From Acidimicrobiales bacterium (GTDB taxonomy: Bacteria; Actinomycetota; Acidimicrobiia; Acidimicrobiales; Acidimicrobilacustridaceae), in contig DAISGD010000005.1 of the NCBI GenBank assembly GCA_036823295.1, positions 15,260 through 79,259 on the forward strand: a stretch of DNA of 64,000 nt, written 5' to 3'. Positions 11,238 through 31,003 of this stretch are shown here, in pieces (positions within the stretch are counted from its first letter, which is position 1; each line of letters starts with the position of its first letter). The notes under the pieces were generated by a model, which had not been told where the DNA came from, did not search any database, and was given only the letters and a program-made list of their open reading frames with translations. The translations under genes and the position numbers were made by a program.

Positions 11238-12115
11238 GCGCCGTCTTCGCTGAGGTCGTCCCCGCTCATGGGGATGCCGCCGGTGAAGAGGAGGTCGCTG
11301 AGTTGGTCCCCGTAGGCGTGGAACTCGGGCGTGCGCATGATCGCGGGGGTGCGGGGCCGGGGAAGGTCGATCGTCACGGTCTGGACGATGCGGCCCGGGC
11401 GGGGGCTCATCACGGCCACCATGTCGGCCAGGAACACGGCCTCGGCCACTGAGTGCGTCACCAGCAGGGTGGTGGCTGAGCGCTCGGTCCAGATGCGCTG
11501 CAGTTCGAGGTTCAGGCGCTGGCGGGTCATCTCGTCGAGGGCGCCGAACGGCTCGTCCAGTAGCAACACCTTGGGCTCGATGACGAGGGCCCGGGCGATG
11601 GCCACCCGTTGGCGCATCCCGCCCGACAGCTGTGACGGTCGGGCCTTGGTGAAGCCCTCGAGGCCGACCAGCTTGATCAGGTCGTCGACTTCCTGGCCCG
11701 AGGTACCGACGCCGCTCACCTCGAGCGGGAGGCGGATGTTGCGTTCGACGTTGCGCCACGGCAGCAGGGCCGGGTCCTGGAAGGCGATGCCCAGATGGTG
11801 GTTCTTGCGGGCCGTCTCGGGGGGCTCGCCGTGGACCAGGGCCACCCCGGACGTGGGGCGCTCCAGGTCGGCCAGGATGCGCAAGATCGTCGACTTGCCG
11901 CACCCCGACGGCCCGAGCAGGGCGACGAAGGCCCCCTCGGGCGCGCCGAAATTGGCGCGATCGAGGGCGGTGACCGTGTCGCGCCCAATGCGGAACTGCT
12001 TGGTGAGCTCACGCAGGTAGATCCCACCGTTGGCGGAACCCGGCGCCGGAGCAGCATCGGATGCCGCCCCGGTCTCGGGCGTCGCGCCGTCGCGCTCCAC
12101 CTGCGCCTCCGTCAC
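11234..12115 (-). CDS. ABC transporter ATP-binding protein (NitT/TauT family)
   Basis: Walker [10 protein letters not shown], signature LSGGMRQR, Walker [13 protein letters not shown]-loop VTHSV. GTGA overlap with the binding-protein stop at 12112-12115. Confidence 0.9.
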
Positions 12116-13439: not shown

Positions 13440-15212
13440 TCACAGCACCATCGAGGGGACGATTTGCCCGGATGTGCCATCCACCAGGCCGACATCGGTG
13501 ACGTGGGGCCCGCCGAGACAGGCCAATGACGACAACAACACCTGGAACAGCGGCTGGGTGAGGGTGGGCGCCTCCAACCCGATGGCCAGCGCCGCGTCCT
13601 GCGTGCGCTTCTGGGCGGAGGCCACCTCGGCGGCCGGGAGGGGGGACAGCAGACCGGCGATGGGCAACTCGATGAGGCCGGTGACCTGGCCCTGGGCCAC
13701 GACGCAGATGCCCCCGCCGCTGCCGATGACCGTGCGGGCGGCCAGCGCCATGTCGTCGGGGTCCCGACCGAACACCACGAGGTTGTGGGTGTCGTGAGCG
13801 ACGGTGGTGGCGATGGCTCCGGTCCAGCTGCCGTAGTCCGCCAGGAGCGCGGCCACCGGCGTGGCCGGGGCACGGCCGTGGCGGTGGATGGCCACCTGCA
13901 GGACGTGATCGGCGGGGATCTCCACCACGCCGTCACGCACCTCGACGGTGGTCTCCCCCCATTCGGTGATGACCGCGCCGGCCACCGTCCGCACCCGATG
14001 GCGGCCATCGGGGACGTCGAGGCGCAGCACGAAATCGTCGGGGGCGACCGCGGTCAGCTTCATGGTGTCGTAGGGCGGGGAGGACGGTCCCTCGACCACG
14101 GGTTCCAGCATCAGCCCGCCCGAGGCCACATGGCGCCCGTTGGCATAGACGTCGTCGACGGCGATCGTGGCGAGATCCGAAAGGATGACCAGGTCGGCCC
14201 GACGGCCGGCGGCGACGTGGCCCAGGTCCGTGCGGGCCAGGCGGTAGGCGGCGTGGAGGGTGGCCATGCGGATGGCCCGCACCGGGTCGAGGCCGGCGGC
14301 GATGAGTCGGCGCAGCAGGTGGTCGATGCCGCCGTCGGTCAGCAGGGTCAGGGCGAACAGATCGTCGGTCGAGGCCACCAGGTTGATGGGGAACAGGGGC
14401 AGGGCGTTGAGGTGCTCGACCGCGGGCGGGATCAGCGCGTCGATCATCCCCCGGAACTCGACCGTCATTCCCGCCCGGATCTTCTCCATCACATCGCCGT
14501 CGGTGAAGATCTCGTGGTCGCTCAGGATGCCGGCGTCGAGGTAGGCCTGCAGGTCGGGACCGGTGAGCCCGGCCGCGTGCCCACTGACCAGCTTCCCGCT
14601 CTCCAGCCCGGCCCGGACCACCTCGACCATGCGCTCGTCGCCGGTGAGCACGCCCCGCATGTCCATCACCTCGGCCAGGCCGCCGACCTCGGTCCACGAC
14701 AGCATGTCGCGGACCTCCGCGGCATAGAGGTCTGCCCCCGACAGCTCGAGGCCAGGGATGGGCGGCACGCACGATGGCGCCTGCACGATGAAGCGCACGG
14801 GTAGGCCGCGGCTGGCCTCGGTCAGGTAGCGCACACCATCGACGCCGGCCACGTTGGCCAGTTCATGGGGATCGCAGAAGATGGTGGTGGTGCCCCGCGG
14901 GCAGACGGCCTCGGCGAACCCACCCGGGGTGAGCATCGACGACTCGGTGTGCACGTGCATGTCGATGAAACCGGGGGCCACGAATCGGCCGGTGGCGTCG
15001 ACCGAGTCGAGGGCATCGGCGCGGCTACCGGGGGCGTGGACGCTGGCGATGAGGGGACCCACCAGTCCGACGTCGGCCGGGCGCAACTCGCCGGTGCTCA
15101 CGTCCACCACCGTGCCTCCGACGATCAGCAGGTCGAAGGGCTCGGTGCCTCGTGCGGCGGCCATGGCCCGGGTGCGAATGGTGGGATCGATGGGTTCGAC
15201 GGGCTCGGACAT
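13440..15212 (-). CDS. ade: Adenine deaminase
   Basis: Motifs GFIDMHVHTESSMLTP, FCDPHELANV and LSDHEIF, with a length of about 590 aa, fit adenine deaminase. The ATG at 15212 follows GAAGGAG. The ORF-track start at 15230 is the alternative. Confidence 0.85.
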   Translation of the reverse strand: MSEPVEPIDPTIRTRAMAAARGTEPFDLLIVGGTVVDVSTGELRPADVGLVGPLIASVHAPGSRADALDSVDATGRFVAPGFIDMHVHTESSMLTPGGFAEAVCPRGTTTIFCDPHELANVAGVDGVRYLTEASRGLPVRFIVQAPSCVPPIPGLELSGADLYAAEVRDMLSWTEVGGLAEVMDMRGVLTGDERMVEVVRAGLESGKLVSGHAAGLTGPDLQAYLDAGILSDHEIFTDGDVMEKIRAGMTVEFRGMIDALIPPAVEHLNALPLFPINLVASTDDLFALTLLTDGGIDHLLRRLIAAGLDPVRAIRMATLHAAYRLARTDLGHVAAGRRADLVILSDLATIAVDDVYANGRHVASGGLMLEPVVEGPSSPPYDTMKLTAVAPDDFVLRLDVPDGRHRVRTVAGAVITEWGETTVEVRDGVVEIPADHVLQVAIHRHGRAPATPVAALLADYGSWTGAIATTVAHDTHNLVVFGRDPDDMALAARTVIGSGGGICVVAQGQVTGLIELPIAGLLSPLPAAEVASAQKRTQDAALAIGLEAPTLTQPLFQVLLSSLACLGGPHVTDVGLVDGTSGQIVPSMVL

Positions 15213-15281
15213 GGCGACTCCTTCGCTCATCCAGGTTCGCAGACTGGATGGGAGAGCGGGGGGTGGGGCGTCATTGCAGCC

Positions 15282-16553
15282 TCATGGCGTGGCCGGCGCG
15301 CGTCCGGCGGCCACCTCGGCGGGGGTGCGACCGACCGCAGAGCGGTAGAAGGGCGGGTCGGTGGCGCCTTCGGTGGACAGGGCCAGCACCACGGCATCGG
15401 GCGCCAGATCGAGCCCCGCTTCGTGGCCGGCGCCGGCGCTCAGCGCGGCCAGCGCGCCCACCGTGCAGGCGCCGGATTCGCCTGACACCACGCCCTCGGC
15501 GGCAAGCAGGCGCATGCCGGCCACCGCCAGGTCGTCTCCGCCGGCCACGAACCAGTCGAATGCGGCCGAGACCCGGGGCCACGCCACCGGCGACGCCTCA
15601 CCGCAGTTGAGCCCAGCCATGACCGAGTGATGCGGCCCGGGGACCTCGACCAGGTGGCCGGCCAGAGCCGAGGCCATCACGCAGTTGGCGGTGTCGGGCT
15701 CGACGCCGATGAGCACCGGTGGGTGGGCGAGCGCCGGTCGGCGATACCACTGGGCCACCGCCGCGGCCAGGGCGCCCACGCCGATTGGCACCACGACCAC
15801 GTCGGGATCGGGAAGGCCGTCGGCGGCCCGCTGGGCATCGATCTCGGCGAAGATCGTGGAGTAGCCGTCGATGACCCAGCGAGGCACGGTGTCGTAGCCG
15901 GGCCATGACGTGTCGGACACGACCAGGCAGGCAGCCGACGCCTCCTGGCCGGCGCGGGCCACGGCGTCGCCGTAGGTCCCGTCCACCACCTCGCAGCTGG
16001 CCCCCTCCGACACGATGGCGTCGATCCGGGCGTCGGCGGTGCCATCGGGCACGAAGATGCGGGCACCGAGACCGAGGAGACGGGCGAAACGGGCCACGGC
16101 TCGACCGTGGTTGCCGTCGGTGGCGGTGGCCAGATCAACGGGCCGTGCCGGCTCGATCAGGTCGGCCAGTTCCTCCACCGTGGACCACGAGGCCAGCGGC
16201 GTGCCGGTGATCGCCTGGTAGCGCTCGGCCAGAGAGCGGTAGGACGCCCACGATGCCCCCAGCATCTTGAACGCGGGGAGGCCCAGCCGGCTCGACTCGT
16301 CTTTGACCAGGAGCCGGCCGACGCGCAGGCGGGCGGCGGCCTCGGGTAGATCCAGCAGCGGAGTGGCCGCATAGCCCGGCAACCGCGCGTGGAACTCGGC
16401 CACCGACGGCATGGGCGACGCCTCTGGCGCCGCGGGTGCCTCCCGAGCCTTCAGAGCCTCCGGAGCCTCCGGAGCCTCGGGAGTTGGTCCGACCCTCAGG
16501 GGATTGCGGACGACGGTGAGGGCGCCAGGCGCGCCGTTGGACGGCGTGGTCAT
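15282..16553 (-). CDS. dpaL: Diaminopropionate ammonia-lyase-like PLP enzyme (YgeX/DpaL family)
   Basis: Aligns by eye along its length with E. coli YgeX. Shared segments: [35 protein letters not shown] (PLP lysine), [44 protein letters not shown]. It carries an N-terminal PEAPEAPEA low-complexity extension. Confidence 0.8.
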
Positions 16554-17557
16554 GCGTCGGCGAAGGCGTCGATCATGGCGGGCACATCATCGCCCAGGGG
16601 GTACAGAATCGGGCAGGTGGCACCGGCGGCGACGTATTCGGCGACCTTGGCCCGGCACTCTTCCGCGGTCCCCGACGCGGTGATCATCTGCACCACGTCG
16701 TCGGGCACGAGCTTGGAGGCTGTCACCACCTGGTCGTGGGTGGCCGGCCAGGTGAGCACCGAGCCGATCTCGTCCAGCAGCGACTCGGGGACGCCGGATG
16801 CCTTCATGATGTGGGGCTGTTGACCCAGGTACTGGGTCACCAGTAGGCGGGCGTTGTCGAGGGCCCGGCCCCGGTCCTCGTCCAGCGAGCACACCACCAG
16901 CTGGGGCCGATCGAGGTCGTCCACCGAGCGCCCGGCCTTGGCCGCCCCGATCTCGAGGTGTTCCATGGCGGTGGCGTTGTAGGCGGGGGACACGAGGTAG
17001 TTGAGTACCGCCCCATCGGCGATCTCGCCGGTCAGTTCCATCATCTTCATGCCGGTGGCGCCCAGGTAAATGGGCACGTCCTTGGGCCGCCGCTCCTGGT
17101 GGACGTAATCGAGCTCGACCCCGTCGAGATGGACGAACTCACCGTCGTAGTCCACCGTCTCGTCGGCCAGCAGGGCGCGCACGGCCTCGATGGTCTCCCG
17201 CATGGCTTGGAGGGGCCGGGTGCGGGTGATGCCCACTTTGGCCGCCAACGGGTCCCACCAGGCACCGATGCCGAGGATGACCCGGCCGGGGGCGAGGTCG
17301 TCGAGGGTGGAGAATGTCGACGCCAGCAAGGCCGGGTTGCGGGTCCAGTTGTTGACCACGCCCGAGCCGACCTTGATGGTGTCGGTGCAGGACAAAAAGG
17401 CCGCCATGGGCACCGTGGCCTCGCGCACCAGGCGGCTCTCGGCCTGCCACACCGCCTCGAACCCTTTGGCCTCGGCGTACTGGGCGATGGTCATGCCCTC
17501 CCGAATGGCATGGGCATCCTGAAGGTAGATGGCCAAGCGGGTCACGGGGTCATCCAA
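16550..17557 (-). CDS. LLM-class (luciferase-like) F420-dependent oxidoreductase, Mer-like
   Basis: 335 aa TIM-barrel LLM signature: [52 protein letters not shown] overlap with the next gene at 16550-16553. Confidence 0.75.
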
Positions 17558-17597
17558 TCTTCTCGTCGGGCGTCGCGTCGGGCGTTCTTGGGGGCGA

Positions 17598-18650
17598 TCA
17601 CAGTCGGGCGAACAGGCGGGAGGCCTGCTCGGCGGCGCGGGCTCGGATCTCGTCGCCGTCGACCCGGGTGGCGCGACCGTCAGCCAGCACGGTCTCGCCG
17701 TCGACCATCACCTTGGTGGCCCGCACGTCGGTCGTGTAGGCCAGGCACCAGGGGTCCATGGGGGCATACGTCCAGGTGACCCGGTCGTCCTTCGCCTCGG
17801 GGACCAGCGACCAGCCCTCGCTCACCCAGGCCCAGGCCACGTCGGCCCCCGCCGTCACGTCGTCCTCGCGCAGACGGGCGAAGGCCACCCGGAACTCGTC
17901 CACCAGGTCGGCGCCGATGCCGTCGGTGCCCAAGGCGACAGGATTCGGTGAGGGTGGTCGGGCGAAGCGGGTGGGGCGGGCATACCCGACCGCGTTGTTC
18001 ATGTTGGAGCGGGGGTTGTGCACGATGGTGCCGGCCAGTCCGTGGTCGTCGGCCAGGTGCACCCCGTGTACCAGCAGCCAGCGGTCGTCGGTCAGCGCCC
18101 GCAAACGCTCAGGTGACGCCACGTCGTCGAGAGCCTCGGCCACATGGATGTGCACGCCGACACCGAGATCCGCGGCCAGGCCGGCGGCGGCTTCGAGCGT
18201 GGCGTCGGAGCAGGTGAAGGCGGCGTGGACCCCGACCAGGCCTGGTCGCCCGGAACGTAGGAAGCGCTCGTTCTCGGCCAGTCCCGCCTTGGCGCCTTCG
18301 GGGCCGTGACGATCGGTGACGCCGTAGGCGCACGAGACGCGGATGCCGACCTCGGCGCACGCCTCGGCGATCACGTCGAGGCTGCCCTCGATGGCTGAGG
18401 GCGACTCGTGGTGGTCGATGATGGCCGTGCACCCGCTCTCCAGGGCCTCGAGGGCGCCGAGCTTGGCCGACCAGGCGATGGTCTCCAGGTCGAGGGCCAC
18501 GTCGAGGCGCCACCACACCCGCTCCAGGATCTCGAGGAACGTTGTGGGTGTCACCTCAGGGGCCGGCATACCCCGGGCCAGGGCCGAATACAGGTGATGG
18601 TGGGCGCACACCAGGCCCGGGGTGACGGCCGGGTCGCCGGCGTCGCTCAC
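17598..18650 (-). CDS. SsnA/chlorohydrolase-like amidohydrolase, short form
   Basis: 350 aa beginning almost at the HxH motif ([17 protein letters not shown]). Later motifs [13 protein letters not shown] and GTDGIGAD. The GTG start overlaps the upstream stop (GTGA at 18647-18650). Confidence 0.65.
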
Positions 18651-21307
18651 GAGGTGACGGTCCGACTGGTGCCGGCCGTTCGACTGGTGCCAGCGGTGCC
18701 GGTGTCGGGCCGCATGGGCAAGCTGGTGCGCCAGGCGCCGTCCAGGTCGTGGAGGGCGGCCGCCACCGCACCCGCGGTCGGCACCAGGCCGATCTCACCG
18801 ACACCTTTGATGCCGTAGGGCGAGCCCGGTTGCGGGCTCTCGACCAGGATCACGTCGACGTCGGGCATGTCCTTCGGGCGCAGGATGCCCAGGCTCTTGA
18901 GGGTCATGGCCGTCGGCCGACCGGTCTCGTCGGTGGGGAAGTCCTCCGTCAGCGCGTAGCCCAGGCCCATGTGCACCGAACCCTCCACCTGGCCTTCGCA
19001 CAGCTGCGGGTTCACGGCCCGCCCGACGTCGTGAGCGGCCACCACCTTCTCGATGCGGCCGGTGTCTCGATCGGCGATGACGAGCTGCGTGGCGTAGCCG
19101 AACGTCGAGTGGATGATCGGGTGCTCGAGACCCTCGGCCAGCGAGTTCGTCCAGTCGACCCGGTACTCACCCTCGTAGTCGACGTCGGTGCGACAGCCGT
19201 CGGCCCGCGCCGCGCGGCAGGCCTCGGCCACCGAACCGGCACCCATCAGCGTGCCCCGGCTGCCGGTGGTCTGACCGGCACCGAGCTCGCGGGTGGTGTC
19301 GACGATGACCCGGATGCGATCGGGATCGACCCCCAGCTCCTCCACCGCCACCTGGAGGGCGACGGTATGCACGCCCTGGCCCATCTCCGTCCAGCAGTGG
19401 CGGACTTCGATGGTGTCATCGGCACAGAAGCGCACCACGGCCCGGGCCACCTCCTTGAAGCCGTTGCCCAGGCCTGAGTTCTTGAGGGCGAGGCCGAGGC
19501 CGATGGCCTTGCCCGCGGCCCGGGCGGCCTCGTAGTGGGGAGCGATCGCGTCGAGGCAGGCCTCGGCCCCCAGGCACCCGTCGTCCATGATCTGGCCCGG
19601 CCCCCACACCTCGCCGGGGCGGATCACGTTGCGCTTGCGGATCTCCCACCCGCTGATCCCGACCTGGTCGGCCAGGCGGTCGAGGCATCCCTCCATGGCG
19701 AACTGGGCCTGGTTGGCGCCGAAGCCGCGGAAGGCGCCGCACACCGGGTTGTTGGTGCGCACCGCCACGGACTCCACGTCGATGGTGGGTACTCGGTAGG
19801 GGCCGCTGGCGTGACCGGCCGAGCGCTCCAGCACCTTCATGCCCACCGACGCGTACGGGCCCGAGTCTCCGAGCATGCGCGCCTCGAGCGCGGTGAGCAT
19901 GCCGTCGTCGTCACAGGCCGCCCGGTACTCCATGGAGATGGGATGGCGTTTGGGGTGCATGAGCAGGGACTGCTCGCGAGTGAGCGTGCACTTCACGGGG
20001 CGCTTCAACAGGAACGCCGCCAAGGCGGTCTGGGCCTGGTTGCTCATGTCCTCCTTGCCGCCGAAGGCCCCACCGTTGGACACCAGCTCGACCGTGACCT
20101 GGTCGGTCGACACTCCCAGCACCGAGGCGATCTGATTGCGGTCGTCCCACACCCCCTGGCCCCCCGAGAAGACGTGCAGGGTCCCGTCAACGGCGGGCAC
20201 CGCCAGGGTGGACTCGGGCTCGAGGAAGGCGTGCTCGATGCGCTGCGTGTGGAACGTCTCGTGCACCCGATGGGGACTGGCCTCCCACGCCGCCCGGGCG
20301 TCGCCCCGGCGATACGTCGACACGCTCAACACGTTGCCGTCGAGTCCCCACACCGCTGGCTCGGGATCGTCGCGGGCGGCGACGGGATCGGTGAACGGCT
20401 CGAGTACCGCGTAGGACGTCTCCACCAACTCCGCGGCCCGGGTGGCCTCCAACTTTGACTCGGCCACCACGATGGCCAGCACATCACCCAGATACGAGGT
20501 GCGGCCCCCGACCGGGATCATCACCGGCCAGTCGATGTGGATGATCCCGACCCGCAGCTCGCCGGGGATGTCCGTCGCGGTGAACACGCCCACCACGCCG
20601 GGCGCGGCGGCGGCCACGGTCGTGTCGATGGCCAGGACGTCGGCCCGGGCGTGGTTGCTGAGCACGAGCGTGGCGTGTGCCATCCCGGGCACGACGAGGT
20701 CGTCCACGTAGCCGCGATCGCCCAGCGCCAGTTCCCGACTCTCGTAGCGCACGCCGCTGGAGCCAATGCCGCCCCGCGGCGTGACGACGACCGGGGTGTC
20801 AGGTGTCTCGGCGGTGGCGGCCAAGGCCTCCACCGCGTCGAGGATCTTCACGTATCCGGTGCAGCGACACAGGTTCGCGCCCAGGTGGCGGGCCGCGTCG
20901 TCGCGAGTGAGGGCGCTTCCCTTCTTGTCGATGAGGGCCTTCGTGCGCATGACGATCCCGGGCGTGCAGAAGCCGCACTGCAACGCCCCGCAAGCGCCGA
21001 ACGTGTCGGCGTAGCGGAGCCGCTCGGCTTCGTCCACACCTTCGAGCGTGGTCACCGTCTTGCCCGCGGCCCGTTCGAGCGACACCTGACAGCTCACCAC
21101 CGCCTTGCCGTCGAGCAGCACCGTGCAGCAGCCGCACTGGCCCGAGGGGGCGCACCCGTCTTTGGGGGAGGTGACGGCCAGCTCTTCGCGCAGGGCGGCC
21201 AGCAGGTGGGGATGGTCGCCCCGCACCTCGACCGGTCCGCCGTTGAGGACGAAGCTGGTGGTGCCGGCGGTCGTGGGAGTGATGGGAGTCTCATCGAGAG
21301 CGGTCAT
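18647..21307 (-). CDS. Molybdopterin hydroxylase with fused N-terminal 2x[2Fe-2S] domains (XdhD / Mop aldehyde-oxidoreductase architecture, no FAD domain)
   Basis: 886 aa. Ferredoxin-type cluster motif SGQCGCCTVLLDGKAVVSC, second cluster motif LQCGFCTPGIVM...NLCRCTGY, then the Ald_Xan_dh a/b hammerhead and Moco-binding domains (GGAFGGKE, AFRGFG). Confidence 0.85.
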   Translation of the reverse strand: MTALDETPITPTTAGTTSFVLNGGPVEVRGDHPHLLAALREELAVTSPKDGCAPSGQCGCCTVLLDGKAVVSCQVSLERAAGKTVTTLEGVDEAERLRYADTFGACGALQCGFCTPGIVMRTKALIDKKGSALTRDDAARHLGANLCRCTGYVKILDAVEALAATAETPDTPVVVTPRGGIGSSGVRYESRELALGDRGYVDDLVVPGMAHATLVLSNHARADVLAIDTTVAAAAPGVVGVFTATDIPGELRVGIIHIDWPVMIPVGGRTSYLGDVLAIVVAESKLEATRAAELVETSYAVLEPFTDPVAARDDPEPAVWGLDGNVLSVSTYRRGDARAAWEASPHRVHETFHTQRIEHAFLEPESTLAVPAVDGTLHVFSGGQGVWDDRNQIASVLGVSTDQVTVELVSNGGAFGGKEDMSNQAQTALAAFLLKRPVKCTLTREQSLLMHPKRHPISMEYRAACDDDGMLTALEARMLGDSGPYASVGMKVLERSAGHASGPYRVPTIDVESVAVRTNNPVCGAFRGFGANQAQFAMEGCLDRLADQVGISGWEIRKRNVIRPGEVWGPGQIMDDGCLGAEACLDAIAPHYEAARAAGKAIGLGLALKNSGLGNGFKEVARAVVRFCADDTIEVRHCWTEMGQGVHTVALQVAVEELGVDPDRIRVIVDTTRELGAGQTTGSRGTLMGAGSVAEACRAARADGCRTDVDYEGEYRVDWTNSLAEGLEHPIIHSTFGYATQLVIADRDTGRIEKVVAAHDVGRAVNPQLCEGQVEGSVHMGLGYALTEDFPTDETGRPTAMTLKSLGILRPKDMPDVDVILVESPQPGSPYGIKGVGEIGLVPTAGAVAAALHDLDGAWRTSLPMRPDTGTAGTSRTAGTSRTVTS

Positions 21308-22317
21308 GACCGCCTCCCTTGCTCGCGGGTGTCGGATTCGTCAGGTGGAGGTGATGGTGATTGCGTCGGCTCGCTCGGGACGGGGGGCACCACGACGCCG
21401 CGCTGGGACGTGATGGGGCCGTAGTGCTCGATCATCCGGTATCGCTCGAAGTCGAACACGGTGCGCTTGTACGAATCGCATGCATCCAGATCGCAGGCGG
21501 CCAGAATGACCTCATCGCCGTCGCTCATGCAACGGGCCACCACCTCCCCCGAGGGGGCGATGATCTGGCTCTCGGCCAGCGACTCGACCCCCTCCTCGGT
21601 GCCGCCCTTGGCCACGCCGACCACCCAGGTGCCGTTCTGGTACGCGCCGGACGCCATCACCAGGTTGTTGTGGAATCCGGCAAGTCGGTCCTGGTCGGGG
21701 TCTGGGGCGTAGTGGATGGGCGTGTTGTAGCCGATGAGGATCAGCTCGGCGCCCTGCAGGCCAAGCACGCGGTAGGTCTCGGGCCAGCGCCGGTCGTTGC
21801 AGATGGCCAGGCCCACGATGCCGTCGAACGCCCGATGGGCCACGAACCCCTCTGGCCCGCCGTCGAAGTAGCGGCGCTCCAGGTGTTGGAACGGCCGCCA
21901 GGGCTCGTGGTCGGCGTGGCCGGGGAGGTGGACCTTGCGGTATCGGGTCACCTGGCGTCCATCGCGCTCGACGAGCACCGTCGTGTTGTAGTGGCGAGTC
22001 ACTCCGGTCGTATCAACGGTGAGCTCGGCGAAGCCCAGCGCGAAGCCCACCCCAAGCTCGCGGGCCTCATCGAACAAGACCTTCGTGTCCGGGCCCGGCA
22101 TCTCGGTCTCGAAGAACTCGTCGACGTCGCGCTGGTCGTCGAACCACCAGCGGGGGAAGAACGTGGTGAGCGCCAGCTCCGGGAACACCACCAGCTCGGC
22201 CCCCTGCGCGGCAGCATCGCGCAGCAGCATCAGCAGCCGTTCGACCACCTCGGCCCGGCTCTGGTCGCGGGGGACCGGCCCCATCTGCGCCGCCGCCACC
22301 TGCACGACCCGGCTCAC
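21304..22317 (-). CDS. Carbon-nitrogen hydrolase (N-carbamoyl-D-amino-acid hydrolase / beta-ureidopropionase-like)
   Basis: Nitrilase-superfamily pattern: VAAAQMGP..., VVFPELALTTFFP (catalytic Glu), YRKVHLP (Lys), GLAICNDRRWPE (Cys). About 35 Pro/Ser-rich residues form a C-terminal tail. Confidence 0.8.
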   Translation of the reverse strand: MSRVVQVAAAQMGPVPRDQSRAEVVERLLMLLRDAAAQGAELVVFPELALTTFFPRWWFDDQRDVDEFFETEMPGPDTKVLFDEARELGVGFALGFAELTVDTTGVTRHYNTTVLVERDGRQVTRYRKVHLPGHADHEPWRPFQHLERRYFDGGPEGFVAHRAFDGIVGLAICNDRRWPETYRVLGLQGAELILIGYNTPIHYAPDPDQDRLAGFHNNLVMASGAYQNGTWVVGVAKGGTEEGVESLAESQIIAPSGEVVARCMSDGDEVILAACDLDACDSYKRTVFDFERYRMIEHYGPITSQRGVVVPPVPSEPTQSPSPPPDESDTREQGRRS

Positions 22318-23675
22318 GACCCGCTCTCCTTCGGGGCTCCCGCGTCGCGCTCGGACCCCGCTCCGCCATTCCGGCGTAGATCTGGGCCGGACGCCGGTCT
22401 GGATTTACGCAAGAAAGCGTCGTCGGCGGCGGCGGCGGTGGGGTTGGCGAGATGGAGCAGGATCTGAAGGAGCACGTCGGCGCCGGCGGTCAGGTCGGCC
22501 GGTGCGGTGTACTCCGCCGGGTTGTGGCTGATGCCTCCGACGCTGGGGACGAAGATCATCCCGGCCGGGCACACCCGAGCCAGCATCTGGGCATCGTGAC
22601 CGGCGCCCGACGCCATGCGTCGCACCGCCAGGCCATGACGGTGGGCCACGTCCTCGACCAGATCCACGACCGTCGGGTCGAACGTGACCGGTTCGAAGCG
22701 CGCCAGCACGCGGCGGACCACCGATACGCCTTCGGCGTGGGCCAGCTCCTCGACCCGGTTGGCCAGCTGCGCTTCGGCGGTGGCCAAGGTGTCGTCGTCG
22801 GGGTGGCGCAGGTCGACGGTGAGGCGGGCCCGGGCGGCGACCACGTTGACCAGGTCCGGGTGGAGGTCCATGCGTCCCACGGTGCCCACCAGGCCCGGGA
22901 TCTCGCTCGTCAGCCGGCGCACGGCGACGACGATGGCGGCGGCGACGTGGCCGGCGTCGTGGCGCATCCCCATGGGCGTGGTGCCCGCGTGGTTGGACTG
23001 ACCGGTGACGGTGAGCTCCTGCCAGGAGATGCCCTGGACGCCGGTCACCACCCCGATCGTCACGCCCTCGCTCTCGAGCACGGGGCCCTGCTCGATGTGC
23101 AGCTCGACGAACGCCCGGGGCGGTCGGGCCGGGCACGGCATGCCTCCCACGTACCCGATGTGAGCCAGCTCGTCGCCCAGGATGGCGCCGTCGATGGCCA
23201 CCGTGTCCAGCGCCTCCTCCAGCGGGAGACCGCCGGCGAACACGAGGCTGCCCAGCATGTCGGGGGCGAAGCGTGAGCCCTCCTCGTTGGTGAAAAAGCC
23301 CACCGCCACTGGATGTTCGATCTGGACCCCGGACTCGATGATGGTCTCCAACACTTCGAGTCCGGCCAGGACCCCGAGGTTGCCGTCGAAGCGGCCGCCA
23401 GTGGCCACCGTGTCGATGTGGGAACCGGTCAGCACCGGCGGGTCGAAGCGATCGGCCGGCCAGGTCCCCACCACGTTGCCGATCCCGTCGACGTCGACGC
23501 GCAGGTCCAGATCTTCCATCCACGACACGACCAGGTTCCTCCCGTCGCGATCGGCATCGGTAAGGGCCAAGCGGGCCGATCCCCCGCCCTCGATGGGACC
23601 GATCTCGGCCAGGTCGGCCAGCCGGCGCGCCAGCCGGTCACCGTTGATCCGCAGCTCGGTCGCCACCGCGCTCAC
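22314..23675 (-). CDS. M20-family amidohydrolase, allantoate amidohydrolase / N-carbamoyl-L-amino-acid hydrolase type (AllC/AmaB)
   Basis: Motifs LADLAEIGPIEGGG, LTGSHIDTVATGGRFDGNLGVLAGLEVLE and GAGHDAQ are characteristic of the AllC/AmaB branch of M20. About 40 extra C-terminal residues. Confidence 0.8.
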   Translation of the reverse strand: MSAVATELRINGDRLARRLADLAEIGPIEGGGSARLALTDADRDGRNLVVSWMEDLDLRVDVDGIGNVVGTWPADRFDPPVLTGSHIDTVATGGRFDGNLGVLAGLEVLETIIESGVQIEHPVAVGFFTNEEGSRFAPDMLGSLVFAGGLPLEEALDTVAIDGAILGDELAHIGYVGGMPCPARPPRAFVELHIEQGPVLESEGVTIGVVTGVQGISWQELTVTGQSNHAGTTPMGMRHDAGHVAAAIVVAVRRLTSEIPGLVGTVGRMDLHPDLVNVVAARARLTVDLRHPDDDTLATAEAQLANRVEELAHAEGVSVVRRVLARFEPVTFDPTVVDLVEDVAHRHGLAVRRMASGAGHDAQMLARVCPAGMIFVPSVGGISHNPAEYTAPADLTAGADVLLQILLHLANPTAAAADDAFLRKSRPASGPDLRRNGGAGSERDAGAPKESGS

Positions 23676-25993
23676 CGCTGGTCATCCTGGGGGTCGAGCC
23701 CATCGGGTTCAGACGAGGTAGCCAGGGCGATGTCGTCGGGGTGAATGGGTACCCGGGGGAGCGCCAGCCCGGTGGCGGCCCGCACCGCAGCGGCCACCGC
23801 CGGGCCCGAGGAGATGGTCGGGGCCTCGCCCGCGCCCTTGGCCCCGAACGGGGCGCCCGGCTCGGCCTCCTCGATGATGGCGGCCACTCGGAGGTCCGGC
23901 AGGTCGAGGGCGGTGGGGATCAGGTAGTCGGTGAACGACGGATTGCGCACCAGGCCATCGGTGACGACGATCTCCTCCATCAGGGCCAGGCCCACGCCCT
24001 GCGCGGCGCCACCCTCGAGCTGGCCCAGGAGTTGGGTCGGGTTGAGGATCTTCCCGACCTCCTGGGACGTGACCAGGTCGACCAGGCGGATGAGGCCGAG
24101 GTCGATGTCGACGTCGACCACGGCCCGGTGGGCGGCGATGCTCAGCGCCAGGTGGGCGTTGCCTTGACCGTTCTCGTCGAGGGGTTCGGTGGGGGCGTGG
24201 TGGTACTCGACGGTCTCCTCGATGACCACGCCGGCTGACGCGTTCATCACTCCGATGTCCACCGCGGGATCCGTGGTTGAGCGGACGCGATCGCCGTGGA
24301 GCACCAGACCGCCAGCCTCGATCCCGAGCCCCTCGGCCACCTGGGCCAGCAGCCGGTCGCGCACCGCCTCGGCCGCGGCCAGCACCGCGCCCCCCGACAG
24401 CCACGACTGGCGGCTGGCCGATGACGAGCCGGCCGAACCGATGGACGTGTCGGCCGGGTTGAGCACGACCGTGTCCACCCCCAGCGCCTCGCGGGTGATC
24501 TGCTGGGCCAGGGTCACGAATCCCTGCCCCACCTCGACGCAGGCGCACGTCACGGTGGCCACCCCATCGGCCAGGCGCACCCGGGCGGTGGAGTAGTCGT
24601 CGAAGCCCTCCGAGAACGCAATGTTCTTGAATCCGACGGCGAAGCCGATGGCCCGGCGGACATCTCCGTCCTGGGCCGTGCGGCCGGCGCCGCCGGGCAA
24701 CGCCATCAGGTCGCCGTCGCCGCGGTCGTGGTCGCCGTCGAACCCTGGTGCCGCGGCGCAGGTGCGGATCACTTCGGCCACCGGCGCCGCGCCGGTGATG
24801 ATCTGACCGGTGATGAGGCGGTCGCCGGTCGCGAGGGCGTTGTGCAGTCGCAGGGCGATGGGGTCCAGGCCCAGGGCCGCGGCCAGGGCGTCCATCTGCG
24901 CCTCGTGGCCGAAGCAGGTCTGCACGGCACCGAAGCCGCGCATGGCCCCGCACGGTGGGTTGTTGGTGCGCAGCGCCCACCCGTCGATGTGTACGTTGGG
25001 TACCCGGTAGGGGCCGGCCGCGAAACACGAGGCGTTGGCCAGCACCGAGGCAGACGTTGACGCATAGGCGCCCCCGTCGAACAGGAGCTTGGCCTCCACC
25101 TTGACCAGAGTGCCGTCGCGCTCGGCACTGTGTCGGTACCACATCCTCACGGGGTGGCGGTGCACGTGGCCGAAGAAGGACTCTTCTCGGTCGTAGACCA
25201 TCTTCACCGGGCGCCCGGTGTGCAGCGCCAGCAATGCGAGGTGGATCTGCAGGCTCACGTCCTCGCGAGCCCCGAAGGCACCGCCCACGCCGGCCAGGTG
25301 GATTCGCACCATGTCGGCCGGGAGTCCCACGCAGGCGCACACCTGGTCGAGATCGTTGTGCAGGGCCTGGGTGGACACGAACAAGTCGAGCCCGCCGTCC
25401 TCGCGGGGGATGGCCAGGCCAGCCTCGGTCCCGAGCGGGGCCTGGTCCTGCATGCCCACCTCATAGGTGCCTTCCACGGTGACGGGGGCGGCGGCGTCGA
25501 GATCGCCGTGGCGGATCACCAGGTGGCGGAACACGTTGCCGTCGGGATGGATGGGCGGGGCGTCGGCTGCGGCTCGAGAGTCGACCAGCGGCGTCGTGGG
25601 CTGGTAGCTGACCCGGATGGCGGCCGCGGCGCGGCGGGCGGTCTCGGGATGGTCGGCGGCCACGATGGCGACCGGCTCGCCCTGGAAGCGGACTACGTCG
25701 CGGGCGAGCACGGGCTGGTCAGGACTTTCCAGCCCGTAGGTGGCGGCGCCGGGCACGTCGTCGGCAGTGAGCACGGCGTAGACGCCGCCCACCCGGAGCG
25801 CGGGGCCGATGTCGATGCTGGTGATGCGGGCCGAGGCGTGGGGGGAGCGCAGCGTGTGGCCCCACAGCATGCCCTCGGCGAAAAGGTCGGACGAGTAGGC
25901 GAAGCGGCCCTGCACCTTGGGCCCGCCGTCGGGACGGGGGGCGTCGACTCCGACGCCTTGGGCGGTGCGGCCCCGGGTAGTGGTGTCGGTCAT
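23672..25993 (-). CDS. Xanthine dehydrogenase-family molybdopterin-binding large subunit
   Basis: ORF 23672-26077 trimmed to the ATG at 25993 (MTDTTTRGR...), which overlaps the FeS subunit stop (ATGA). Hammerhead domain (KVQGRFAYSSDL), GGAFGARED and AMRGFG motifs. 773 aa. Confidence 0.85.
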   Translation of the reverse strand: MTDTTTRGRTAQGVGVDAPRPDGGPKVQGRFAYSSDLFAEGMLWGHTLRSPHASARITSIDIGPALRVGGVYAVLTADDVPGAATYGLESPDQPVLARDVVRFQGEPVAIVAADHPETARRAAAAIRVSYQPTTPLVDSRAAADAPPIHPDGNVFRHLVIRHGDLDAAAPVTVEGTYEVGMQDQAPLGTEAGLAIPREDGGLDLFVSTQALHNDLDQVCACVGLPADMVRIHLAGVGGAFGAREDVSLQIHLALLALHTGRPVKMVYDREESFFGHVHRHPVRMWYRHSAERDGTLVKVEAKLLFDGGAYASTSASVLANASCFAAGPYRVPNVHIDGWALRTNNPPCGAMRGFGAVQTCFGHEAQMDALAAALGLDPIALRLHNALATGDRLITGQIITGAAPVAEVIRTCAAAPGFDGDHDRGDGDLMALPGGAGRTAQDGDVRRAIGFAVGFKNIAFSEGFDDYSTARVRLADGVATVTCACVEVGQGFVTLAQQITREALGVDTVVLNPADTSIGSAGSSSASRQSWLSGGAVLAAAEAVRDRLLAQVAEGLGIEAGGLVLHGDRVRSTTDPAVDIGVMNASAGVVIEETVEYHHAPTEPLDENGQGNAHLALSIAAHRAVVDVDIDLGLIRLVDLVTSQEVGKILNPTQLLGQLEGGAAQGVGLALMEEIVVTDGLVRNPSFTDYLIPTALDLPDLRVAAIIEEAEPGAPFGAKGAGEAPTISSGPAVAAAVRAATGLALPRVPIHPDDIALATSSEPDGLDPQDDQR

Positions 25994-26556
25994 GACGCTC
26001 CCGCAGCCTGCGCCCCGCGACGCCCGATGGTGACCCGGATGGCCTCCATGACCCGGCCGTAGCCGGTGCAGCGGCACAGGTTGCCGCTGATGGCCTCACG
26101 GATCTCCAACTCGTCAGGCTGGGGCGAACGGGCCAGCAGGTCGCGCGCGGCCATGACCAGGCCCGGGGTGCAGAACCCGCATTGCACCGCACCGGCGTCG
26201 ACGAACGCCTGTTGGACATCGGACAGGATCCCGTCCGGGGCGAGCGCTTCCACCGTCACGATGTCGCGCCCCACTGCGGTGGCGGAAAGCACGAGACAGG
26301 AACAGACGAGCGTGCCGTCAACGGTGACCGAGCACGACCCGCACTCACCCTCCTCACAGGCATTCTTGGCGCCGGGCAGGCCGAGCCGCTCGCGCAGCAC
26401 GTACAGCAGGCTCTCGCCCAACCAGGCGTCGGCCACCTCGCGCTCAGCGCCGTTCACCCTCAAGGTGTACGCGTGGTCGATGAGTTCGACGGCATGGTCG
26501 CGGGGACCGCCGTCGGGTCCGTGGTCGGCCTGTTGCGGGTGACGGGGCGCCGTCAT
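25990..26556 (-). CDS. Xanthine dehydrogenase-family [2Fe-2S] small subunit
   Basis: Trimmed to the ATG at 26556, overlapping the FAD subunit stop. Motifs CEEGECGSCSVTVDG and VQCGFCTPG...NLCRCTGY. Confidence 0.85.
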   Translation of the reverse strand: MTAPRHPQQADHGPDGGPRDHAVELIDHAYTLRVNGAEREVADAWLGESLLYVLRERLGLPGAKNACEEGECGSCSVTVDGTLVCSCLVLSATAVGRDIVTVEALAPDGILSDVQQAFVDAGAVQCGFCTPGLVMAARDLLARSPQPDELEIREAISGNLCRCTGYGRVMEAIRVTIGRRGAQAAGAS

Positions 26557-27398
26557 CCGGGGAACATCCGCAGCAGGGCGCGCCGTGCCAGCACCCCGGC
26601 GCAGTGCCGGCGGTAGGCCGCGGTCGAGCGGTGGTCGTCGATGGGTCGGGCGGCGTCGGCCACGAGCTCGCCGAATGTGGCCGCGGTGCGGGGGTCGGGC
26701 ACCCGGCGGGCCTCCCAGTCGAGGTGGTCGACCACCCACGCCTCGGCTTCGGGCGCCCGCAGGATGGTCGGTCCCACCGAGCCGAGGCCTACCCGCACGA
26801 TGCGACCGCTCAGGTCGACCAGCGCGGCCACACTGGCCACCGAGATGACCATGGCGTTTCGGGTCCCGACCTTGAGGAATTCCTGCGGGCCATCGAGCAC
26901 GGGGACCCGTACCCCGACGATCAGCTCACCCGGCACCAGGGCCGTCTGCTTGGGTCCGACGCAGAACGTGGCGAAGGGCACTTCCCGCTCCCCGAGCGAC
27001 GAACGCACCATCACGACGGCGTCGAGGGCGGCCAGCACGGGGAGGGTGTCACCGGCGGGGGAGGCGGTGGCCACGTTGCCCCCCAGCGTGCCCGCGTTGC
27101 GGATTTGGGGGGATCCGACCGTCCGGGCCGCCTGGGCCAGGGCGGGAACCAGCGCGGCCAAGGCCGGCTCCGCCAGATCGGCGTAGGTCAACCCGGCGCC
27201 GAGGGTGAGGGCACTGCCGTCACGGCTCCAGGAGCGGAGGCCGTCGACCCGGTCGAGCGCCACCACCGTGGTCGGGCGAGCCCGCCCGGCGTTGACCGCC
27301 ACCATGAGATCGGTACCGCCCGCCAGCAACAAGGCGTCGCCATGGGCGTCGAGCGCGGCACAGGCCTCGTCGATGGAGCGGGGGATGAGCACGGTCAC
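26553..27398 (-). CDS. Xanthine dehydrogenase-family FAD-binding medium subunit
   Basis: 281 aa CoxM/XdhB-like: LLAGGTDLMV, NAGTLGGNVATASPAGD. The GTG start is preceded by GGAGAA. Confidence 0.85.
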   Translation of the reverse strand: MTVLIPRSIDEACAALDAHGDALLLAGGTDLMVAVNAGRARPTTVVALDRVDGLRSWSRDGSALTLGAGLTYADLAEPALAALVPALAQAARTVGSPQIRNAGTLGGNVATASPAGDTLPVLAALDAVVMVRSSLGEREVPFATFCVGPKQTALVPGELIVGVRVPVLDGPQEFLKVGTRNAMVISVASVAALVDLSGRIVRVGLGSVGPTILRAPEAEAWVVDHLDWEARRVPDPRTAATFGELVADAARPIDDHRSTAAYRRHCAGVLARRALLRMFPG

Positions 27399-27540
27399 TA
27401 GTTGATTCTCCGAGCTATTTCAACAGTTTGTCAACGATCTCCCCTTAGCTATCACACACCGTTCACACAGCCCGAGAGCCGAGGGGGACCATCGGCTGGA
27501 AGATTCTTGACACGGATCGGCCCGTCGCGGCATCTGATGG
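27399..27540. promoter_or_regulatory. Lower-GC divergent control region between the XDH operon and the ECF sigma gene
   Basis: 142 bp, visibly less GC-rich. Direct repeats AGCTAT(N2)CA at about 27413 and 27448, and TCAACAG/GTCAACG. TTGACA on the plus strand at 27507-27512 and on the minus strand around 27427-27432. Confidence 0.4.
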
Positions 27541-28005
27541 GTGATGCTCAGCGACGCCGACGGCGAGATCTACGAGAAATACGCCGACGAGCTGATCCGT
27601 TTCGCTTCGGGGTTGGTAGGGCCTGACGATGCGTCAGACGTGGTCTCCGGAGCAGTCCTGCGTGCCTTCACCTCGCCGTCCTGGCCTGCGGTCACGAATC
27701 ATCGTGCCTACTTGTACCGCGGCGTCCTCAACGAGGCCCGGATGTGGCGCCGCACAAACCAACGCCGCCTGGCCCGTGACGATGGTCAGCGCCCAACCGA
27801 CGAGTGGTGGGATCCCGAGGTCCGACCTGACGTGCGCCAAGCGGTGGCCGAGCTCGATGTGCGCTCAAGAGCGGTGCTGTTCCTGTCCTACTGGGGCGAT
27901 CTGCCCGCAGAGGAGATCGCCCAGCTGCTCGACATCAGTGTGAGCACCGTCCGCCGCGACGCGGCCCGGGCTCACCGCCGACTACGGAGGAAGTTCCATG
28001 ACTGA
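27541..28005 (+). CDS. ECF-type RNA polymerase sigma factor (sigma-70 regions 2 and 4)
   Basis: 154 aa. Region 2-like DVVSGAVLRAF...AYLYRGVLNEA. Region 4 HTH RAVLFLSYWGDLPAEEIAQLLDISVSTVRRDAARAHRRLR. Confidence 0.8.
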   Translation: MMLSDADGEIYEKYADELIRFASGLVGPDDASDVVSGAVLRAFTSPSWPAVTNHRAYLYRGVLNEARMWRRTNQRRLARDDGQRPTDEWWDPEVRPDVRQAVAELDVRSRAVLFLSYWGDLPAEEIAQLLDISVSTVRRDAARAHRRLRRKFHD

Positions 28006-30960: not shown

Positions 30961-31003
30961 GGGGTCAGCCTGGCACAGGCCACAATTGTCTACCGTGACG
31001 AAG

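Follow-up and report, generated by a model that had tools for sequence, protein, structure and literature searches.

Which fate awaits the purine ring in an actinobacterium that places genes for xanthine dehydrogenase (XDH) in the same operon as a gene for a diaminopropionate ammonia-lyase? The question is raised by ten genes of an Acidimicrobiales bacterium (Actinomycetota; family Acidimicrobilacustridaceae) that lie within a 64,000-nucleotide stretch of contig DAISGD010000005.1 (assembly GCA_036823295.1, positions 15,260 to 79,259), referred to below as the window. An initial annotation had compared the operon with the ygeV-ygfT region of Escherichia coli, described there as a region with most of its reactions unassigned. 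That description is out of date, as in 2025 the pathway encoded by this gene set of E. coli and Clostridium was reconstituted by Li et al. (10.1101/2025.05.19.654654 = PMC12507026) and Liu et al. (10.1101/2025.04.24.650524). On the basis of its gene content, the locus probably encodes an F420-linked, purely hydrolytic form of this reductive uric acid pathway, which is also known as the 2,8-dioxopurine or "yanthine" pathway.

In the published route, XdhD or DOPDH converts urate to 2,8-dioxopurine, which is reduced by YgfK or UacX before SsnA opens the ring; the resulting ureidomethyl-hydantoin is opened by HyuA to diureidopropionate, the two ureido groups are removed by YgeW-YqeA or UacY, plus YgeY, and YgeX converts the 2,3-diaminopropionate to pyruvate (PMC12507026; 10.1101/2025.04.24.650524). 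The route was presented as characteristic of anaerobic bacteria of the gut (PMC12507026; 10.1101/2025.04.24.650524). Li et al. also proposed that, in gene clusters of Chloroflexota, an F420-dependent luciferase-like monooxygenase (LLM) family protein (PF00296) acts as the reductase in place of YgfK or UacX (PMC12507026). Full-text literature searches returned no paper on a version from the Acidimicrobiia and none other linking SsnA with F420.

The ten genes form a single compact unit. An open reading frame (ORF) scan found ten co-directional minus-strand ORFs between positions 13440 and 27398 (Table 1), all with a third-codon-position GC fraction (GC3) of 0.87 to 0.91. Stop and start codons overlap as ATGA or GTGA at seven junctions (26553, 25990, 23672, 22314, 21304, 18647, and 16550), and the two intergenic gaps measure 40 and 51 nt when the longest ORFs are taken. 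The same ten genes have been called in the public annotation of identical contigs (GCA_036747275.1 plus two ENA assemblies), with products of 281, 188, 773, 453, 337, 886, 350, 331, 423, and 590 amino acids (aa) in operon order; these calls start the LLM gene at GTG 17545 and the adenine deaminase gene at 15212, giving preceding gaps of 52 and 69 nt. The architecture reported in the initial annotation is therefore supported by independent gene calls. A promoter-like site ends 7 nt 5' of the GTG start of the first gene and is the sole sigma-70-like match between 12900 and 28100, where 0.6 would be expected by chance; because of its position, a leaderless transcript is possible. No Rfam family matched anywhere in the window at gathering thresholds, so that a riboswitch or another known RNA element ahead of the operon was rejected, and a terminator scan gave no informative operon boundary. 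Families were assigned by profile searches against Pfam and NCBIfam, E. coli pathway proteins were compared by tblastn/BLAST, and solved relatives were found by searching PDB sequences.

Between the genes for an FeS-molybdenum cofactor (Moco) fusion protein and the diaminopropionate ammonia-lyase (DpaL) lie those for a short SsnA-family amidohydrolase and the LLM. The short SsnA, a member of the family that marks the pathway, shares 34.5% identity with E. coli SsnA, together with metal ligands and the motifs HxH, WWRLD, IDHH, HIHxAE, RSNMNN, and LGTDGIG, and it lacks the N-terminal ~50 residues of canonical SsnA. An AlphaFold (AF2) model (pLDDT 82.8, pTM 0.87) adopts a TRZ/ATZ-type amidohydrolase fold (TM score 0.75). 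The possibility of a pseudogene or miscalled start was rejected, since the upstream gene occupies the space in question and the length is kept both in public gene calls and in the 120 best homologs (332 to 363 aa, 72 to 100% identity), of which the named ones belong to the Acidimicrobiia. As in the E. coli pathway, the protein is proposed to act on reduced 2,8-dioxopurine and to open its ring.

The reductase that would supply this substrate is the gene product for which the E. coli set offers no counterpart in the window: tblastn with the E. coli protein found no match to YgfK in the window, as the initial annotation had also noted, and none of the scanned ORFs matched PF01180, the family of UacX. 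The top 15 NCBIfam matches of the LLM are all F420-class, and every PDB sequence match is an F420 enzyme, with Mer the best (4e-41). In a survey of short-SsnA neighborhoods that used one genome per species and comprised 80 Acidimicrobiales loci, 45 loci had an ortholog of the LLM (identity of at least 72%), which in 40 of these 45 was encoded on the same strand no more than 300 nt after SsnA. A short YgfK homolog was found in 7 of the 80 loci, and the two proteins occurred together in none (0/80). This homolog (620 to 675 aa; 435 bits against TIGR03315) retains the YgfK-specific N-terminal catalytic domain and the C-terminal 4Fe-4S region at 37 to 40% identity and is without the pyridine-nucleotide middle part. 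Such mutual exclusion fits a non-orthologous displacement of the 2,8-dioxopurine reductase and constitutes the strongest argument for the role of the LLM, which is probably an F420H2:2,8-dioxopurine reductase supplying the YgfK/UacX function and not an accessory protein. A predicted NADPH-dependent F420 reductase (Fno/NpdG) encoded elsewhere in the window shows that F420 is used by the organism and that F420H2 can be formed. The initial annotation had described an F420- and mycothiol-using organism; the use of mycothiol is plausible but not established. The gene bearing on mycothiol encodes a CysS/MshC-like ligase of 380 aa, which scores 403.6 bits against the MshC model (cutoff, 485.1) and 353.2 bits against the cysS model (cutoff, 340). 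A second luciferase-like (PF00296) oxidoreductase is encoded at the far end of the window in a context unrelated to the purine operon.

The first three genes of the operon encode an XDH of three subunits. The FAD subunit has XdhB as its top NCBIfam match, under the cutoff, and 29% identity to E. coli XdhB, and the 2Fe-2S subunit is 46% identical to E. coli XdhC. The large subunit passes the pucD model TIGR03196 (812.2 bits; cutoff, 783.65) and has equivalents of the purine-type active-site residues (AREDV, HRHP, and GAGE); the enzyme is proposed to convert hypoxanthine to xanthine and xanthine to urate. The fusion protein, which carries 2Fe-2S and molybdopterin domains, reaches 185.6 bits against the XdhD model TIGR03313 (cutoff, 1101.9). 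By profile it is TIGR03311-type, and it resembles XdhD in architecture only. Its nearest solved relative is the aldehyde oxidoreductase of D. gigas (MOP). It retains the purine-type residues GGKED, KRHP, and GVGE, and a function as an aldehyde oxidoreductase is unlikely because equivalents of Glu802, Arg880, and Glu1261 of the purine hydroxylases are present. At the position of E606, the XdhD determinant proposed by Li et al., the aligned loop reads Asp-Asp in the fusion and Thr-Gly in the PucD-type subunit, in an alignment that at 24% identity is too uncertain to use. The molybdenum domains span residues ~325 to 866 after a 17-aa N-terminal extension, compared, by length and boundaries only, with 307 to 839 quoted for the DOPDH of C. 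sporogenes; no solved structure of SsnA or DOPDH was present in the PDB copy searched. This domain-boundary match and the tight linkage to SsnA favor the fusion as the DOPDH analog, and we propose that it is a DOPDH-like oxidoreductase interconverting urate and 2,8-dioxopurine.

The downstream steps would require a hydantoinase, two ureido-group hydrolases, and DpaL. A D-hydantoinase gene missed in the initial annotation lies outside the operon. Its product is 41.5% identical to E. coli HyuA over the full length, matches PDB D-hydantoinases at 1e-110, and scores under the cutoff of the allantoinase model (245.8 bits; cutoff, 357.85); it is proposed to hydrolyze ureidomethyl-hydantoin. The nitrilase-superfamily enzyme of the operon matches PDB D-carbamoylases in phmmer searches with E values of 1e-112 to 1e-103 (379 bits over residues 1 to 308), and its Glu-Lys-Cys triad can be read in the motifs FPELALT, YRKVHLP, and ICNDRRWPE, the last with the catalytic Cys. 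It is proposed to cleave the 2-ureido group as a non-orthologous stand-in for YgeW/UacY; tblastn with the E. coli proteins gave no match to YgeW or YqeA in the window, in agreement with the absence of carbamoyltransferase and carbamate kinase genes reported in the initial annotation, and the search did not extend to UacY, a PF07969-type D-aminoacylase. The M20 enzyme passes the hydantoinase/carbamoylase amidase subfamily model TIGR01879 (388.5 bits; cutoff, 204), has L- and beta-carbamoylases as its best solved relatives (322 to 366 bits, against 194 bits for solved AllC), and gave no BLAST match to E. coli YgeY. It is of the AmaB/beta-carbamoylase type and is proposed to remove the 3-ureido group, again as a non-orthologous stand-in, here for YgeY. 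The substrates of both carbamoylases are those that we infer by analogy with the published steps.

The M20 enzyme also bears on whether the organism might instead oxidize purines in the canonical manner. XDH would then form urate, its conversion to allantoin would fall to the LLM, working as a flavin monooxygenase, or to an enzyme with its gene elsewhere, and the amidohydrolases would open the allantoin, with M20 as an allantoate or ureidoglycolate amidohydrolase. The majority of known Acidimicrobiales are aerobes, LLMs include flavin monooxygenases, and M20 exceeds the cutoff of NF006769, a subfamily model labeled "allantoate amidohydrolase" (467.5 bits; cutoff, 452). Such a route is nevertheless highly improbable. 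M20 fails the AllC equivalog TIGR03176 (261.3 bits; cutoff, 597.75), solved AllC and ureidoglycolate amidohydrolase score far under the carbamoylases, the relatives of the LLM are all F420 reductases or dehydrogenases, and DpaL, the D-carbamoylase, and SsnA would be left without a role. The large high-GC3 ORFs scanned in the window, with smaller ORFs outside the scan, included no uricase, 5-hydroxyisourate (HIU) hydrolase, 2-oxo-4-hydroxy-4-carboxy-5-ureidoimidazoline (OHCU) decarboxylase, or allantoicase family, as the initial annotation had stated, and no flavin reductase.

DpaL, the product of the ninth gene, passes NF006058 (336.8 bits; cutoff, 276), is 38.5% identical to E. coli YgeX, and keeps equivalents of the catalytic residues K77, D120, and D189. 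Given the pathway as published (10.1101/2025.05.19.654654; 10.1101/2025.04.24.650524), such an enzyme would make sense only with deoxygenation of the purine at C6, that is, on a route through 2,8-dioxopurine. Its placement within the translationally coupled unit is also a difficulty for the idea that the locus is a mosaic. In a mosaic, XDH, adenine deaminase, and the FeS-Moco fusion would carry out ordinary purine oxidation; the hydantoinase, both carbamoylases, and the LLM would serve reductive pyrimidine breakdown, with the LLM as an F420-dependent analog of dihydropyrimidine dehydrogenase, or the general breakdown of hydantoins and N-carbamoyl-amino acids; and DpaL and the short SsnA would act on unrelated substrates. 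Pairs of hydantoinase and D-carbamoylase are the classic enzymes of the "hydantoinase process," and their natural substrates are debated. The hydantoinase passes the dihydropyrimidinase equivalog TIGR02033 and is encoded outside the operon, and M20 resembles an N-carbamoyl-beta-alanine amidohydrolase (8c46). We regard a mosaic as unlikely, since it leaves unexplained the coupling of DpaL, the tight and conserved adjacency of the FeS-Moco, SsnA, and LLM genes, and the mutual exclusion of the LLM and YgfK, the latter being specific to the dioxopurine pathway; moreover, one carbamoylase suffices for pyrimidine breakdown, whereas two are encoded here.

Many genomes of Acidimicrobiales keep this combination of genes. 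At least 565 stretches of species-representative genomes encode a relative of the short SsnA, including those of Microthrixaceae, Ilumatobacteraceae, "Ca. Poriferisodalis" and Poriferisocius (both sponge-associated), and marine Sva0996. In the 48 surveyed loci with full 10-kb flanks, orthologs of the FeS-Moco fusion were encoded near the short SsnA in 40, of the LLM and of the D-carbamoylase in 30 each, of M20 in 26, and of the XDH subunits in 15 to 19. Of the 56 related loci with an FeS-Moco ortholog, 43 have it directly upstream of SsnA, and the gene order XDH, M20, D-carbamoylase, FeS-Moco, SsnA, LLM is repeated in several (e.g., loci L008 and L040). A reverse test that started from homologs of the hydantoinase on metagenome contigs led back to the same set of genes: among 37 loci of at least 12 kb, XDH-family genes were found in 26 to 29, D-carbamoylase in 14, M20 in 13, short SsnA and DpaL in 11 each, and the LLM in 10. 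One such arrangement (L123) has M20, D-carbamoylase, FeS-Moco, LLM, DpaL, and hydantoinase in this order on one strand; the locus contains a short-SsnA match, although the gene went uncalled by the ORF pass in the space before the LLM gene. In several other genomes (L007, L023, and other Ilumatobacteraceae loci) a short SsnA of ~70% identity has no pathway genes within 10 kb, in one case with an L,D-transpeptidase-like neighbor, so the family is not always clustered.

Variants among the related loci show, as far as gene content can, that the system is modular. The LLM ortholog of L144 pairs with an SsnA of 453 aa and an XdhD-type enzyme. In L155 (14302-19889), genes for an enzyme resembling ornithine carbamoyltransferase and for a true carbamate kinase lie directly upstream of those for FeS-Moco and short SsnA, which implies that a predicted ATP-yielding branch exists within the same lineage. 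An Ilumatobacter metagenome-assembled genome (L045, 12966-14622) encodes bona fide YqeB and YqeC, for selenium-dependent Moco maturation, adjoining the LLM and DpaL genes, with BLAST matches in L026, L040, and L055; this suggests that the labile-selenium cofactor trait is present in some Acidimicrobiia and is, by analogy, in line with the dependence of the clostridial enzyme on selenium. No YqeB or YqeC match was obtained in the 64-kb window with E. coli queries, and SelD was not searched for. Pyridoxal phosphate (PLP)-dependent PALP proteins of ~515 to 523 aa are encoded near the cluster in L034 (2416-3987), L043 (17875-19422), and L053 (11115-12671), and an amidase-signature enzyme is encoded in L010 (12341-13780). 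The position of DpaL is taken by the PALP protein in L053 and by the amidase in L010, which suggests alternative downstream chemistry, whereas L034 also has a separate DpaL ortholog.

These differences among downstream genes could also be expected if the FeS-Moco fusion, SsnA, and LLM performed an analogous dehydroxylation, reduction, and hydrolysis on another nitrogen heterocycle, such as an oxidized derivative of guanine, a pterin, or an isomeric oxopurine, with a product only partly overlapping the published pathway. The 8-oxoguanine-deaminase-type gene is the commonest extra neighbor, and the short SsnA (34.5%) and the TIGR03311-type enzyme (24%) have diverged from the characterized E. coli proteins. 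We consider this quite unlikely, however, as adenine deaminase, XDH, hydantoinase, two carbamoylases, and DpaL match the published urate route step for step and bona fide YgfK N-terminal domains replace the LLM in sister clusters. No rival explanation accounts jointly for the coupled DpaL, the two carbamoylases, and the exclusivity of the LLM and YgfK.

Several observations weigh against the F420-linked 2,8-dioxopurine route. The short SsnA scores 268.7 bits against NF005540 (cutoff, 444) and matches model positions 51 to 340 only, which accounts for its sub-cutoff score. No NCBIfam match of the LLM exceeds its cutoff (the best, Mer, gives 186.3 bits against 276), and its use of F420 is deduced from its nearest relatives only. 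The hydantoinase gene is outside the operon, 4.8 kb upstream and on the opposite strand; no more than 12 of the 48 full-length loci have a DpaL ortholog near the short SsnA; and M20 passes the NF006769 model discussed above. The fusion protein shares only 24% identity with the XdhD of E. coli and falls marginally under the TIGR03311 cutoff (826.7 bits against 830.45), and NCBI names TIGR03311 a xanthine dehydrogenase. Sister clusters hold both enzyme types, with an XdhD-type protein (TIGR03313-like, ~980 to 1160 aa) encoded beside the TIGR03311-type FeS-Moco protein in L040 (18072-21008) and L144 (11760-17977). Because of this naming and this coexistence, the roles of the two Moco enzymes of the window could be swapped relative to our proposal.

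With regard to the initial annotation, all of the families that it named were recovered by Pfam and NCBIfam, including DpaL-like and SsnA-like proteins in their expected families by profile and identity, the latter under its cutoff and in a short form; the exceptions are the XdhD-like label of the fusion, which is TIGR03311-type, and the AllC option for M20, which is carbamoylase-type. The view that the operon is an actinobacterial counterpart of the ygeV-ygfT set ending in diaminopropionate is upheld in its main lines by the counterparts of SsnA, YgeX, and HyuA and by the conserved combination of genes; M20 and the nitrilase-superfamily enzyme are not homologs of YgeY and YgeW.

If the chemistry of the homologous steps is taken from the 2025 papers, the complete route would run as follows. 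Purine nucleoside phosphorylase, adenosine deaminase, and adenine deaminase would split and deaminate nucleosides, and an 8-oxoguanine deaminase would yield urate directly; the PucD-type XDH would convert hypoxanthine and xanthine to urate, from which the FAD-less FeS-Moco fusion would strip the 6-oxo group to give 2,8-dioxopurine. The Mer-like LLM would reduce 2,8-dioxopurine with F420H2, which the nearby Fno could regenerate from NADPH, and the reduced ring would be hydrolyzed immediately by the short SsnA. The D-hydantoinase would then convert ureidomethyl-hydantoin to 2,3-diureidopropionate, the D-carbamoylase and the M20 carbamoylase would remove the 2-ureido and 3-ureido groups, respectively, and DpaL would form pyruvate and 2 NH3 from 2,3-diaminopropionate. 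By our calculation, hypoxanthine + 6 H2O yields pyruvate + 2 CO2 + 4 NH3, a redox-neutral balance in which the two XDH oxidations could pay for the two reductions. As neither a carbamoyltransferase nor a carbamate kinase is encoded, no ATP would be made by substrate-level phosphorylation, which suggests scavenging of nitrogen and carbon in a respiring heterotroph and not fermentation.

The pathway itself has been described before, and a replacement involving F420 has been published as a suggestion for one other phylum only, Chloroflexota. New here are the Acidimicrobiia lineage and the breadth of its distribution, the truncated SsnA that scores below threshold, the replacements by D-carbamoylase and AmaB-type enzymes, and the comparative evidence for displacement between the LLM and YgfK. 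We lean slightly toward a wider interpretation, in which environmental Acidimicrobiia of activated sludge, soil, seawater, and sponges (as symbionts) share a widespread, redox-balanced, F420-driven 2,8-dioxopurine pathway, the Mer-like LLM is a new F420H2-dependent purine reductase working with a minimal SsnA, purine breakdown is the natural role of the D-hydantoinase and D-carbamoylase, and purines are disposed of without uricase or oxygen. If so, the same purine chemistry would be at work across a large group of Actinomycetota, free-living as well as symbiotic, and would run on the F420 redox cofactor and different hydrolases; the repertoire of F420 enzymes would gain a dearomatizing purine reduction. 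The D-hydantoinase/D-carbamoylase pair would gain a plausible physiological substrate, and the urate-lowering engineering that motivated the 2025 work would gain a compact, ATP-independent, possibly oxygen-tolerant enzyme set. Public annotations such as "Mer," "cytosine/adenosine deaminase-related hydrolase," and "allantoate amidohydrolase" would then be uninformative.

Genes surrounding the operon include further candidates for purine uptake and processing (Table 1). Downstream, beyond the coordinates of the initial annotation, the array continues on the same strand through genes for an ABC transporter binding protein, an ATPase, two permeases, and adenosine deaminase, the last four joined by 4-nt overlaps. 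The substrate of the transporter may be guessed from context to be a nucleobase or nucleoside, and the binding protein recurs beside the cluster in 7 of the 37 metagenome loci (54 to 66% identity). Orthologs or paralogs of the 8-oxoguanine deaminase-type gene adjoin the LLM or hydantoinase gene in many related loci, and the predicted enzyme would be a source of urate for the pathway. A crotonase/enoyl-CoA hydratase family gene with no obvious purine role lies between the adenosine deaminase and 8-oxoguanine deaminase genes. Between the latter and a second TRZ/ATZ amidohydrolase gene is a high-GC3 stretch with three candidate ORFs, none of which has a Pfam match; the one run against NCBIfam, on the minus strand, has no match there. 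Upstream of the operon, the purine nucleoside phosphorylase ORF encodes 399 aa with the phosphorylase domain beginning only at residue ~134 to 152, which indicates either an internal start or an N-terminal extension of ~130 aa. The adenine deaminase of the operon itself reaches 377 bits against TIGR01178, under the 472.5 cutoff.

A regulator or permease was sought in the gap from 27399 to 29437, and the region was found instead to encode an extracytoplasmic function (ECF) sigma factor and a protein of 479 aa, in an overlapping pair divergent from the purine operon. The second protein has no Pfam or NCBIfam match and, from its predicted topology, is probably an anti-sigma factor. An antisense ORF of 481 aa in the same region is rich in Arg, Gly, and His and matches no Pfam family. 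A protein of 1413 aa with PD40/WD40-like beta-propeller repeats is encoded farther along the window, downstream of a polysaccharide biosynthesis group.

Table 1. Coordinates of the purine operon and of other features in the window, with the operon genes in order of transcription.
Feature	Position	Strand	Length (aa)	Supporting match or remark
Promoter-like site	27405-27434	-		TTGACA, 18-nt spacer, GAGAAT; sigma-70-like consensus match only
XDH, FAD-binding subunit	26553-27398	-	281	PF00941 (E=3.9e-50), PF03450
XDH, 2Fe-2S subunit	25990-26556	-	188	PF01799 (E=1.2e-30); internal start; ATGA overlap at both ends
XDH, molybdopterin large subunit, PucD type	23672-25993	-	773	TIGR03196
M20 N-carbamoyl-amino-acid/N-carbamoyl-beta-alanine amidohydrolase type	22314-23675	-	453	TIGR01879
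N-carbamoyl-D-amino-acid hydrolase (D-carbamoylase), nitrilase superfamily	21304-22317	-	337	phmmer against PDB
2Fe-2S and molybdopterin fusion without FAD domain	18647-21307	-	886	TIGR03311-type
Short SsnA-family amidohydrolase	17598-18650	-	350	NF005540, partial-length match
Mer-like F420-class LLM	16550-17545	-	331 from GTG 17545 (335 if TTG 17557)	PF00296 (E=1.4e-66)
2,3-Diaminopropionate ammonia-lyase, YgeX/DpaL type	15282-16553	-	423	NF006058
Adenine deaminase	13440-15212	-	590 from 15212 (596 from ATG 15230)	PF13382 and PF01979
ABC transporter binding protein, NMT1/THI5 type	12112-13218	-		PF09084
ABC transporter ATPase	11234-12100	-		PF00005
ABC transporter permeases (two)	10428-11237, 9538-10431	-		PF00528
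Adenosine deaminase	8522-9541	-	339	TIGR01430, 294 bits (cutoff 216.55); 4-nt overlap with last permease gene
Crotonase/enoyl-CoA hydratase family	7438-8403	-		NF006108, 396 bits (cutoff 273)
8-Oxoguanine deaminase-type amidohydrolase	5927-7333	-	468	NF006055, 603.4 bits (cutoff 532)
Candidate ORF	4574-5878	-		
Candidate ORF	4767-5267	+		
Candidate ORF	5277-5666	+		
Second TRZ/ATZ amidohydrolase	3103-4494			
ECF sigma factor	27541-28005	+	154	TIGR02937
Protein overlapping ECF sigma gene	27998-29437	+	479	Short cytoplasmic head, one transmembrane helix, large external domain
Deoxyribose-phosphate aldolase (DeoC)	29447-30127	-		TIGR00126, 189 bits (cutoff 117)
Purine nucleoside phosphorylase	30124-31323	-	399	NF006054, 312 bits (cutoff 218)
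Small thiamine-BP-like protein	31371-31664	-		
Purine phosphoribosyltransferase	31648-32172	-		PF00156
D-Hydantoinase/dihydropyrimidinase, HyuA type	32208-33590	+	460	TIGR02033 / IPR011778; 492.1 bits against TIGR02033 (cutoff 393.25)
NADPH-dependent F420 reductase (Fno/NpdG)	38514-39173	+		TIGR01915, 181.8 bits (cutoff 149.8)
CysS/MshC-like ligase	39267-40409	+	380	
Polysaccharide biosynthesis group	45227-49972			
PD40/WD40-like repeat protein	50964-55205	+	1413	
Second luciferase-like oxidoreductase	62310-63335	-		PF00296

Comparison with known systems places the locus among several. Like the puc system of Bacillus subtilis (PucABCDE with the uricase/allantoin route), it has an XDH that passes the PucD equivalog and a similar arrangement of FAD and FeS subunits, whereas the PucL/PucM uricase branch, allantoinase, and the PucR regulator were not found among the ORFs scanned in the window. 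The cluster of E. coli (xdhD-ygfM, ygfK, ssnA, hyuA, ygeW, yqeA, ygeY, as well as ygeX) is closer: homologs of SsnA, YgeX, and HyuA are shared, as are an FeS and Moco hydroxylase beside SsnA, a reductase gene adjoining SsnA, and a predicted conversion of diaminopropionate to pyruvate at the end. In contrast to E. coli, the window is without YgfK, YgeW, YqeA, YgeY, YgfM, and a sigma-54 regulator; its Moco enzyme is TIGR03311-type and not XdhD/TIGR03313; its reductase is an F420-class LLM; and its SsnA is ~50 N-terminal residues shorter. XDH and adenine deaminase are part of the same operon, both ureido groups are predicted to be removed hydrolytically, by the D-carbamoylase and the AmaB-type M20 enzyme, and so without gain of ATP, and the host is a high-GC environmental actinobacterium.

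[quoted passage not shown] They differ in that the PydA-like, FMN-containing UacX would be replaced here by a luciferase-like TIM barrel and UacY, with its D-aminoacylase fold, by a nitrilase-superfamily enzyme. The proposal of Li et al. for Chloroflexota likewise has a PF00296 protein standing in for YgfK or UacX beside SsnA, but it concerns Chloroflexota members of IPR017700, whereas the present host belongs to the Acidimicrobiia, and the carbamoylase replacements are unmentioned in that paper. The short SsnA of the window probably lies outside the network of Li et al., because it scores 255.9 bits against TIGR03314, under the 455.5 cutoff. Finally, the D-hydantoinase and D-carbamoylase are close relatives of the solved industrial enzymes of the Agrobacterium and Pseudomonas "hydantoinase process" (1e-110 and 1e-112), but here the two genes, which are not adjacent, belong to a purine-catabolic set with SsnA and DpaL. 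That context suggests, by analogy, ureidomethyl-hydantoin and 2,3-diureidopropionate as the natural substrates of such enzymes.

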